Shown: piece after piece, positions 2,934-34,429 of the stretch
How positions within the stretch are numbered: the first letter of the stretch is position 1
How the letters are laid out: every line of letters starts with the position of its first letter
Source: Eledone cirrhosa
Taxonomy: Eukaryota
NCBI GenBank assembly: GCA_964016885.1
Contig: OZ024744.1
Span: 186,001 to 250,000, forward strand
DNA length: 64,000 nt
Reading direction: 5' to 3'
Position numbers and translations under genes: made by a program
The notes under the pieces: model-generated
Told to the model about the DNA's origin: nothing
The model's input: only the letters and a program-made list of their open reading frames with translations
The model's database searches: none

Positions 2934-2999
2934 GTTTTTTGGAGACAGCATCTCCATGTATGCTTGACTCAGAGATAATGTTCTCTACAGAAGACATAA
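2934..2999 (-). CDS. Putative 66-nt phase 1-1 exon, type A (xMSSVENIISESSIHGDAVSKK)
   Basis: tttttttccag|66 nt|gtaagt on the minus strand. Further intact copies: 4938-5003, 6931-6996, 10739-10804, 15041-15106, 22498-22563, 24176-24241. All are open in phase 1. Confidence 0.6.
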
Positions 3000-3623
3000 C
3001 TGGAAAAAAATACGGAAGAATATAATAGGAAAGCTACAAGGTTTTCTTGGAAGAGTTTGTTGTCAATGTTTAAGAAACGGTAGAATAACGTGTCGAATTT
3101 TAAATTAGCTAGAACATTTTAGTTATATATGTGGTGTCTGGTATTATAGGGACAAATATTGTAGTTTCCCACTGGACCTAATGTACAAATAGATATGATG
3201 GTATAAGCAAATATGTAGAGCAATGGCTGATCTAGGGGATACGGGGATGAGGTGTATGAACAACGACGGAAGACCAGAAGTAGTGAAGAAGTGTCGGAGT
3301 CAACTTTGTTATATCTGAGAACACTGACGTCTGAGATAATTCCATCTACCACAGTGTATCTAGTGCAACATTCATCTTCTCTTTTTAATCAGATATAATG
3401 TCATTCTTTCATAGCTAACTCTGATAATGGCTTGAAAAAGTGTAACTTTACTTTTGACCTCATTGTAAGGTCAATGAGGATCGAGGTCAATAAAATGTTT
3501 ATCCGGGGTTATGTTAGAGTTTGTAATATAATATTCTTGACTGAAATAAGTAGATATACATTTAATGATCCAAACAAAAAAGTTTCTGAATAATGAATAG
3601 ATAATTTTTAAATTATAACTTAC

Positions 3624-3683
3624 TAATTTCAGAAAGTTTGGTCTTGAGTTTTGCAGTTCGAGGAGACAAATCTGAAGTGTCAG
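3624..3683 (-). CDS. Putative 60-nt phase 1-1 exon, type B1 (xDTSDLSPRTAKLKTKLSEI/N)
   Basis: ttttgtgtgttttctag|60 nt|gtaagt. Other B1 copies start at 5626, 7624, 9223, 9429, 11432, 13485, 13691, 15734, 17366, 17572, 19179, 19385, 20998, 21204. The Leu codon varies synonymously (ctc/cta/ctt). Confidence 0.6.
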
Positions 3684-4158
3684 CTAGAAAACACACAAAA
3701 TAATAGTAAAACTGTATGTATGTATACAAATATATATTACAAATTCAAAAAACAATTAGTATAAACATTATCACTGATATACTGATAAATACACCAGGTC
3801 CGGACACAAACCGAACCAAGTTTCCATGTCCTTGTCATGACCTGAAATATTGAAGAAGTATCGGAGGCAATTTTGTTAATGATGAGAACTCTGATCTGTG
3901 AGATAATTCATCTTCTCTTTTTAACCAGATATAATGTCATTCATTCATAGCTAATACTGATAATGGCTTGAAAAAATGTATCTTTACTTTTGACCTCATT
4001 GTAAGATCTCTGAAGTTCAAGGTGAATAACATGTTTATCCTTGATTATGTTAGGGCGTTTGTAATATAATATTCTTGACTGAATTAACTAGTTATACATT
4101 TACAAAACATAAATAAGTTTCTGAATAATGAATAGATATTTTATAAATTATAACATAC

Positions 4159-4218
4159 TATTTTCCGAACGAGGGCTCTTGAATGTGGCACCTCGAAGAT
4201 ACAAATGTGAAGCGTCAT
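4159..4218 (-). CDS. Putative 60-nt phase 1-1 exon, type B2 (xDASHLYLRGATFKSPRSEN)
   Basis: gttttctag|60 nt|gtatgt or gtaagt. Other B2 copies start at 6160, 8145, 9963, 11953, 14225, 16255, 18091, 19904, 21735. None has a stop in phase 1. Confidence 0.6.
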
Positions 4219-32559: not shown

Positions 32560-33110
32560 CTATTCCACTCATGTTTTCTATTTAATTTTGGGTGGAGTTC
32601 GTTTATATTCGTCGCCTCTGTGATTTGCCTGAGCATTACATCTTTTCTGTGCGTGCATATAATTTTTAATCTCTATGTTCTCTAATGTGCCCCAATGTTC
32701 TATTTTTTGCATGTTGGTGGAGTACTGATGAGTTTTTCCCATCCTGGAGTTCTCGCCAGTATTCACTTGTTCCTATGCTACGGAGTGTTTCACCTATGTA
32801 TGTTATATTCTTATTCCTACACTGTCCGTCAGTAGATCTTATGCTATATACTACGTTCCTAATTGTTGCAGTTAGTTTGCGGGCTTAGCTTGCAGACTTT
32901 GCATTTCCTATCAGCACAGGGGATTCTTTGAAATGGGTGTGTTTTACTAATTAGGGTTTTTATGGGAATACCTGGTCTTTCAACTACCTTAATATTTGAT
33001 TTGAGCTTATCTAGGGCCCTTCTAAATCTGTAAGCCAGCTCGCCTCTAGGGATTGTATTGACGAACATTACTTATTCCTAATCCTTTCTATTCTGTTCCA
33101 AAATTGCTCC
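32560..33110 (-). mobile_element. Penelope-like element linker plus GIY-YIG endonuclease remnant (second family)
   Basis: FVNTIPRGELA...IKVVERPGIPIKTLI...PCADRKCKVC...NC, then after a frameshift RNVVYSI...C...YIGETLRSIG...SVLHQH. Confidence 0.85.
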
Positions 33111-33989
33111 TATACATGGGACAAGTTCCATATATATATATATATATATTAATAAAAACGATGAAGATTCGTGGCATGTAATTGGATTTTGTATTGTGTA
33201 TCAACCTGCTACGCGCGTTTCGTAGCGGTTTGGCTCAGGGTAACGCATAGAAGTTATGGATCCGACTCCATTATCGATCTGCTCTTCTTACTGGCGATCC
33301 GACAAAAAATATCGTATATATATATATGTGTGTGTGTGTGTGTGTGGAAAGAGGGAGAAAAAGTAAGGGAGAGATTATATTATTTATTCAAGTGTGAGCT
33401 ACATGAGCTCTGATATAGAGTTACTGTCCTTGAGTTCAAACTGCATCCCCTTCTTTTTTCACTATGTGGGACGTTTCCCTCACCACATCACATTGAATGA
33501 TGTTATTTAAAGAGTGACAATTTTGCTGTCTTTTAGGCATAACTGGAGCTTATTGGTCTTAACCACGGTGATACTTAGTGTCGCGGGGGTTTAACTCCTT
33601 TTCTCATTCAACGAGGGAAAATGATTCCATGTTTTGTGACATACTCCAGCGCTAAAATTGTCACTTCAGACAATGATCAAAATAGAGCCACTCACAAGGC
33701 AGCAGAGGAACAGAAGATGGATAAATTAACAAGATGTTTTTTTACAATCTCTCCTCGCTTCTGCGACTAGCATTTCCCTCCGTTGAGAGGAAGGGTATCA
33801 TGCCTGAGAAATAAGTCCGGAGAGATATATTGGCTTATACAGCTAATATTGCTAGTCTTCTGTTCTGTGGGGCGGCGTAAAACAGACAAGTTGTTTAGAA
33901 GTTGTGTACTTATATTTTGGAGAAATAAAATGATATCTTAGTGTGTTATTTACAATTTAACAAACTGGGTTTATTATAACGTACTTTAA

Positions 33990-34190
33990 GGGCGTGGATT
34001 GGCTGTTTGGTAGAGTGCCGGACAGCATGCTTTGTGGCATATAGTTACAGCATTTTACGTTCTGAGTTCAAAATTTACCGAGATTAGCTTTGCCTTTAAC
34101 ATGTACGGGGTCGATAAAATAAACTACTACTAATGCACTAGGGTAGATTTAATCGACTTTCCCTTCAAATTGCTGGCATTGTGTAGAAAT
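33990..34190 (+). mobile_element. tRNA-derived SINE, same family as 24980-25159
   Basis: ttggctgtttggtagagtgccgg...cgttctgagttcaaa...gagattagctttgccttt...ggggtcgataaa...aatcgact. Confidence 0.8.
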
Positions 34191-34203
34191 AATTATAACT
34201 TAC

Positions 34204-34429
34204 CAGGCTGCATATCGATTGTGTGCGATTCATTAACATGCGCTGTGGCTGTTGGAAACTCCACAGTCTGAGGTGCAGGATCGATAGATGTTATATTATA
34301 TTGTTCCTGCTTCTTTTGTCGTCGTCGGCGCCGTTTCTCTCGGTAGCAAGGACAGAGGGACTCAGCAAGCCGTCGGGCCCTTTCAGCACATCTTCTGAGA
34401 AAGCCGCGACGCTTTTTTGGCTCCGACAT
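34204..34429 (-). CDS. Putative first coding exon of an uncharacterised gene: Arg/Lys-rich N terminus with LCPC motif
   Basis: ATG at 34429, 226 nt (75 codons + 1): MSEPKKRRGFLRRCAERARRLAESLCPCYREKRRRRRQKKQEQ...IDMQP, then G|gtaagttataatt. It is GC-richer than its flanks and its phase matches exons A and B. Confidence 0.65.

Follow-up and report, generated by a model that had tools for sequence, protein, structure and literature searches.

Small exons multiplied in tandem have been described in several gene families. In the extract of PMC2576457 on which we draw, the polymorphic mucins of Schistosoma mansoni (SmPoMuc) form a multigene family built of units of about 1 kb, each consisting of one small exon whose length is a multiple of three (3n) and its flanks; the units are separated by microsatellites and vary in copy number, and the genes combine a 22-aa signal peptide, a 27-bp exon, with up to about 20 copies in the genome, and unique C-terminal exons. 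The primate DAZ genes are multi-copy and arranged in head-to-head inverted pairs, with a 24-aa repeat exon amplified to 8-24 copies (extract of PMC2322974). NBPF, with its Olduvai (DUF1220) repeats, is described in PMC9313022 as a lineage-specific family of tandem exon doublets, organized in higher-order repeat blocks with distinct end types. The schistosome micro-exon genes (MEGs) place most of their coding sequence in small exons that can be skipped in frame, and encode small, mostly secreted proteins (PMC4015677, in part). Finally, a survey of human genes reports that tandem duplication of symmetric exons has given rise to disordered proteins (PMC3632108, in part).

The locus analysed here in Eledone cirrhosa resembles SmPoMuc, DAZ and NBPF in its architecture and is a member of none of them. 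The window, by which we mean the whole stretch of 64,000 nucleotides under analysis, corresponds to C28:186,001-250,000 of a 3.0-Gb genome and holds the 5' part of a 132-kb unit. Like SmPoMuc, this is a multigene family of tandem exon-intron units with one 3n exon each; unlike SmPoMuc, it has two alternating types of exon, of 60 and 66 nt (B and A), in more than 110 copies; its tail descends from the same module, and charge and hydropathy give no indication of a signal peptide or a secreted mucin. Multi-copy inverted pairs and a short repeat exon amplified within the gene recall DAZ. DAZ, however, has an RRM, an ancient parent (DAZL/BOULE) and Y linkage, whereas no domain, parent or support for sex linkage was found here: Pfam gave no RRM in exon 1, and the remaining predicted ORF consists of modules. 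With NBPF the locus shares lineage specificity, tandem exon amplification and distinct types at the array ends; Olduvai needs a small and a large exon, whereas each exon here is symmetric by itself and B-B-B runs occur without A. The likeness to MEGs lies in a coding sequence made mostly of small exons, with in-frame skipping possible; MEG exons measure up to 36 bp, whereas those described here, at 48-78 nt, fall outside a very-short-exon class. The locus fits the assembly rule of the human survey as given in the extract of PMC3632108, from which it differs in having no folded domain at all and in belonging to a lineage-restricted family.

Searches with exon 1 found no homolog among longer proteins, 1.84 billion representatives and the Atlas, none among near-length proteins when an exon-1 alignment was used, and only sub-threshold hits in Pfam. 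No hit to SmPoMuc, MEG, DAZ or NBPF was obtained with exon 1 as query, the modules (19-21 aa) being too short for such a search. Among the papers listed by literature searches, whose coverage stops short of subscription journals and preprint supplements, none was on such a cephalopod family. We propose that the modules are almost certainly real coding exons, now or until recently, that an orphan gene family is likely real, and that the complete gene reading developed below, with the window copy expressed, is probably correct.

The module array in the window comprises the following predicted features.

29075..29135, minus strand: dead B-type remnant, acceptor retained, donor and exon body deleted
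28620..28685, minus strand: 35th module, A-type, acceptor AG changed to CG
24867..24926, minus strand: first intact B exon, 60 nt, phase 1-1
24176..24241, minus strand: first intact A exon, 66 nt, phase 1-1
3624..23251, minus strand: 26 further B exons of 60 nt from the segment scan, with first bases at 23251, 21794, 21263, 21057, 19963, 19444, 19238, 18150, 17631, 17425, 16314, 15793, 14284, 13750, 13544, 12012, 11491, 10022, 9488, 9282, 8204, 7683, 6219, 5685, 4218 and 3683
2934..22563, minus strand: 6 further A exons of 66 nt, with first bases at 22563, 15106, 10804, 6996, 5003 and 2999
1..2933, minus strand: intron, holding the upstream flank of a deleted B exon (about 2270) and flank sequence belonging to the next B exon

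The initial annotation had reported 27 B segments (60 nt) and 7 A segments (66 nt) on the minus strand, each with a polypyrimidine-AG acceptor and a GTAAGT or GTATGT donor and each open in phase 1, with TAG in A at phase 0 and TGA in B at phase 2; all 34 were recovered exactly, positions and properties included. Its ATG exon at 34429-34204, 226 nt long and ending in phase 1 ahead of GTAAGT, was equally confirmed, and splicing it to the 34 segments would yield 769 aa, where about 770 had been estimated. Junction codons are sense, as proposed: no ordered pair of downstream exons creates a stop. At 60-66 nt, the exons exceed the cut-offs of about 27-51 nt usual for microexons. The count of at least 34 modules stands for the window, where all 34 were found; the array and tail of the whole unit extend to C28:88,758. 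The module at 28620..28685 had been missed; an in-frame AG 15 nt inside it, at 28670, would give a 51-nt exon. The first module is degenerate in paralogs too, and the next B exon lies 89 nt past the window edge (C28:185,911).

Beyond the window, the array continues to about C28:120,200, uniform at its centre and diverged at its ends. It is followed by tail exons of 48, 78, 57, 63, 51, 66, 63 and 63 nt, several of which have module-type intron flanks and little or no likeness in their interior. Modules and tail together make 116 small exons, all 3n and 48-78 nt long, and 114 of them have both sites intact. The last exon, at C28:88,758, brings a stop after two codons, with AATAAA about 190 nt beyond. 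The ATG exon, the more than 110 tandem segments of 48-78 nt and this final stop/AATAAA exon are likely spliced together, and full inclusion would give a product of 2,428 aa with 14.7% Ser, 10.2% Thr, 9.2% Pro and 131 S/T-P sites. No hydrophobic span was found in this predicted product, and its FoldIndex, 0.001, is borderline. Two exons have GC donors (C28:122,720 and 90,311), that at 90,311 being GC in the C18 group as well and GT in the pseudogene at C28:28.8 Mb. One tail intron houses a 19-kb array of a 96-bp satellite (C28:98,832-118,118).

The initial annotation had overlooked both the many copies of the unit, which make it a family, and the complete 3' end. Genome-wide, 17 matches to exon 1 were found at 65-100% identity, 15 of them open and 2 broken by a stop or frameshift. 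A last exon on the same strand lies 51-224 kb downstream of 16 of the 17, and the remaining copy is close to the edge of a small contig. In all 11 other copies that were read (of 16), B and A modules follow downstream; those of the older subfamily have very different residues and unchanged lengths and sites. Several B modules of this subfamily (e.g. at C28:45,147,078 and 34,043,279) lack the AG, and an in-frame AG 15 nt inside would give 45-nt exons. The last exon keeps its acceptor and first codons in 9/9 aligned copies and AATAAA in 8/9; its stop is TAA in five, TAG here, and replaced by readthrough to a later TAA in three. That array copy number would set protein length, as the initial annotation suggested, is borne out by module counts: 113 here, 122 in a near-identical inverted twin at C28:4.54-4.67 Mb (whose first dead module lies outside the stretch taken for this count) and 28-44 in four other complete copies, while one pseudogene retains 5. 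Haplotype duplication may account for some of the near-identical copies that lie on small contigs. Further module arrays occur on C28 near 34.25, 44.2 and 45.48-45.58 Mb, one of them with a match to the last exon; exon 1 was not detected at these arrays, which are possibly truncated copies.

Such a family raises the question of whether the copy in the window still works. Its own penultimate exon carries a TAG, in an exon that is open in three paralogs, and two of its modules have lost sites; most other complete copies bear lesions, those at C18:9.38 Mb and C28:45.25 Mb having an internal stop or a 59-nt exon. Together with the near-identical twin and the several broken paralogs, these observations would suit a family that is coding, of which this copy, or every copy today, is silent and intact by inheritance from a working ancestor. 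We consider this quite unlikely: the TAG shortens the product by only about 14 residues, its end falling 34 nt upstream of the last junction, frameshifts and stops are absent from the 111 intact modules here and from 121 in the twin, and the CRE and ATG context described next are intact.

Exon 1 and its upstream region comprise three features.

34204..34429, minus strand: exon 1, 226 nt, ATG, 75 codons plus 1 nt, GTAAGT donor in phase 1
34430..34680, minus strand: TTTG-rich conserved stretch preceding the ATG, about 92-95% identity in 11 aligned copies
34960..34967, no strand assigned: candidate promoter element, palindromic CRE TGACGTCA, 538 nt 5' of the ATG

The CRE is perfect in 16 of the 17 exon-1 copies, 447-636 nt upstream of the ATG, and the copy without it is one pseudogene, in which 755 nt upstream were examined. 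As the window's CRE is the sole such site within C28:1-250,000 and recurs across the family, we infer a promoter function for it. The TTTG-rich stretch is likely a 5' UTR or proximal promoter. No upstream ATG occurs in the 225 nt before the start, where 6.6 are expected (P=0.0004). A search of sequencing runs with window 34204-34560 listed no RNA run that contains it, a result that weighs neither for nor against expression. Immediately upstream of the CRE lies a 1.9-kb (TGG/ACC)n tract (window 35032-36910); a comparable tract precedes the C18 and older paralogs, so it appears to be a component of the duplicated unit. We rejected this tract as an upstream mucin exon: most frames are open through composition, and the long ORF shifts register internally. 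A 60-nt candidate at 31112-31053 was likewise rejected, having no homology to modules and no match in the C18 paralog. A short dispersed repeat, which we take to be SINE-like (window 34170-34070 and 25160-25010), lies at the start of intron 1 and is common to the aligned paralogs.

The peptide encoded by exon 1 has a net charge of +14 over its N-terminal 41 aa. Neither a signal peptide nor a membrane span was detected from the charge and hydropathy of the predicted protein, the largest 19-residue hydropathy being 0.65. The predicted structure consists of basic helices at 3-25 and 28-47, interrupted at Cys-Pro-Cys, and past these two helices the model is of low confidence (pTM 0.41). The first helix is amphipathic, with a helix moment of 0.63-0.66 (P=0.02-0.03 by shuffling), and the 10 copies aligned all retain Cys14 and Cys28. 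Exon 1 changes fast: non-CpG differences affect 27/186 sites against 13/268 in the intron, and synonymous sites are fast as well. Its codons show an excess of synonymous changes, 24.3 against 17.5 expected (13 intact variants, P=0.026), which counts in favour of selection on the reading frame.

The coding interpretation depends above all on selection on the reading frame. Modules were gathered by their flanks, AG and length, the frame not being a criterion. For the stop test, 100 B and 50 A distinct variants with a live donor were joined in a minimum spanning tree of 548 changes; the null held the changed positions and redrew the alleles in 2,000 simulations. In the claimed frame 2 new stops had arisen against 19.0 expected, and none of the 2,000 simulations was as low, with the reservation, valid for all the frame tests, that they share ancestry and ignore gene conversion, so that P values are approximate and counts not fully independent. 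Five control frames gave observed/expected stops of 24/23.1, 22/24.3, 27/34.1, 22/21.3 and 11/16.6, all with P>=0.05. An earlier version of the test, which randomised positions, also found 2 stops against 18.4 expected, yet 3 of 10 control frame-class pairs were depleted as well. The comparison of indels between exon and flank, which the initial annotation had called for, came out in the same direction: 3n events make up 8 of 11 in exons and 29 of 86 in flanks (P=0.019, with crude event calling). Broken modules number 6 of 176 where both sites are present and 6 of 26 where a site is lost (P=0.0014), and module variants that differ by up to 65% retain length and sites. Selection on one reading frame, as expected of protein-coding sequence, was thus found. 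The initial annotation had cautioned that many copies are recent duplicates; stops, indels and broken modules answer this worry with independent evidence of frame selection. Its reading of a fast-evolving gene with tandemly amplified symmetric phase-1 exons is supported.

These results bear directly on the view that the array is a non-coding satellite whose splice-like sites and open frame arose by chance, exon 1 being an unrelated ORF. Such a view would agree with the absence of an exon 1 homolog from 1.84 billion representatives, Pfam and the Atlas, with a dN/dS of about 1 and with the abundance of true satellites in the region. It is strongly disfavoured, and we hold it to be extremely improbable: stop depletion is specific to the claimed frame, exon indels tend to be 3n, variants up to 65% different keep their length and sites, and exon 1, array and last exon follow one another in a fixed sequence in 16 copies. 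Moreover, a control satellite of about 630 bp, located at 43320-53298 of the window, showed no recurring exon-like segments, with 2 one-off candidates only.

What is conserved does not extend to the residues. The constraint that the initial annotation had expected in exons relative to flanks holds for frame and splice sites and fails for substitutions, where the divergence of exons exceeds that of flanks by a factor of 1.4-2.0 when all pairs are compared (0.84-1.14 on exon-built trees) and dN/dS is at least about 1. Purifying selection on module residues was sought in the 100 B and 50 A variants and not found. Synonymous changes amount to 73.3 against 72.9 expected in B and to 41.5 against 53.8 in A, a deficit with P about 0.03, and module pN/pS is 1.25 and 1.47. 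Of the distinct A modules, 12.5% have lost the donor, a rate only slightly better than the 18% at other flank dinucleotides. By the pattern of changes, then, constraint acts on frame and splice sites, and amino acids seem exempt.

The excess of exon divergence could also point to a generator of diversity, in which transcripts would join only subsets of the modules and encode numerous short, variable products, diversified by selection in recognition, host-parasite conflict or gamete conflict, by analogy with MEG and SmPoMuc. The symmetry of all exons and the absence of any stop-creating junction pair would permit it, internal stops of paralogs would be bypassed if exons were skipped, and the 1.4-2.0-fold divergence, the excess of pN over pS and the A-class synonymous deficit would agree with it. 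We nevertheless judge it very unlikely, given that the predicted protein lacks a signal peptide or membrane span, that long runs of identical modules contribute no diversity, and that synonymous sites outpace the flanks too, the ratio on exon-built trees pointing to homogenised introns. Homogenisation would explain the exon/flank pattern as well as positive selection would; greater homogenisation of introns than of exons is discussed for SmPoMuc, with spider silk genes cited, in the extract of PMC2576457.

We therefore return to a single long gene as the preferred reading, and suggest the following mechanism. Unequal crossing-over would have multiplied a phase 1-1 exon-intron unit, as indicated by the uniform centre and diverged ends of the array. 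With all exons in phase 1-1, units could be gained, lost or skipped without disturbing the frame. The product would be a long, predicted-disordered Ser/Thr/Pro-rich protein with a basic N-terminal anchor, in which selection holds the frame open and lets residues vary almost freely, a pattern expected of a spacer or of a phosphorylation-rich tail whose length and composition count above its sequence. Amphipathic helices with cysteines and a basic run commonly anchor proteins to membranes. Tentatively, from the structural model, the helix, Cys14/Cys28 and the Arg run may hold the protein at the cytoplasmic side of a membrane, the tail forming a disordered brush of variable length; alternatively, the basic N terminus may be a nuclear signal. 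Germline expression is a guess, suggested by the multi-copy inverted arrangement, the rapid change and the conserved CRE. A bolder proposal, which we regard as unlikely, is an expressed, cephalopod-restricted family whose module residues would be driven by positive selection in germline conflict. Only a 75-aa anchor, to membrane or chromatin, would not derive from one small exon-intron unit, and the disordered chains encoded by the copies would differ in length, reaching about 2,500 aa at most, according to array copy number and in-frame skipping.

The chromosome setting was also considered: C28 is out of place in the size order, which had suggested Z-linkage. Markers including SPAG9-like and PRPS1-like genes are Z-linked in other coleoids (extract of PMC10925132). 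Here these markers and eIF5/eIF2B gave no support for Z-linkage of C28 or C18: the SPAG9-like and best PRPS1-like matches fall outside C28 and C18, on the small unplaced contigs C1420 and C1256, and the eIF5/eIF2B family match on C28 contains stops. Since the SPAG9-like and PRPS1-like genes are on such contigs, the Z chromosome may be unscaffolded in this assembly. Elsewhere in the region, a 48-bp satellite exceeds 23 kb (window 60963-64000 and C28:250,001-270,000; also C28:1-1770); several of its frames have stop-free stretches, but indels of 1-4 nt are frequent. Broken reverse transcriptase/endonuclease fragments, which from their motifs we take to be LINE-like, occupy window 37500-42000, 53200-56500 and 57900-60500. 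The genome also contains at least 5 copies of molluscan hemocyanin genes (C1:173.7-173.9 Mb; C26:21.9-22.0 Mb, an inverted pair; C27:62-67 kb). One unit scores 650-659 bits against PDB 4yd9_C, 6r83 and 1js8, presumably squid and octopus hemocyanin, and 503 against the best unit of 3j32, presumably abalone; these scores point to a coleoid cephalopod as the likely host.

Frame-specific stop depletion across repeat variants offers a recipe to uncover genes hidden in satellites. If the germline-conflict proposal were true, satellite masking would conceal entire fast-evolving gene families in cephalopod genomes. If the genes are expressed, an orphan family of about 16 members, 51-224 kb each, would have been overlooked by ORF scans and repeat masking. 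It would provide a natural test of selection in a disordered repeat protein, where frame and length are held and residues are free, for which dead modules and pseudogene copies would serve as internal controls. It would also extend to cephalopods, and to an apparently intracellular protein, the style of gene building seen in SmPoMuc, DAZ and NBPF.
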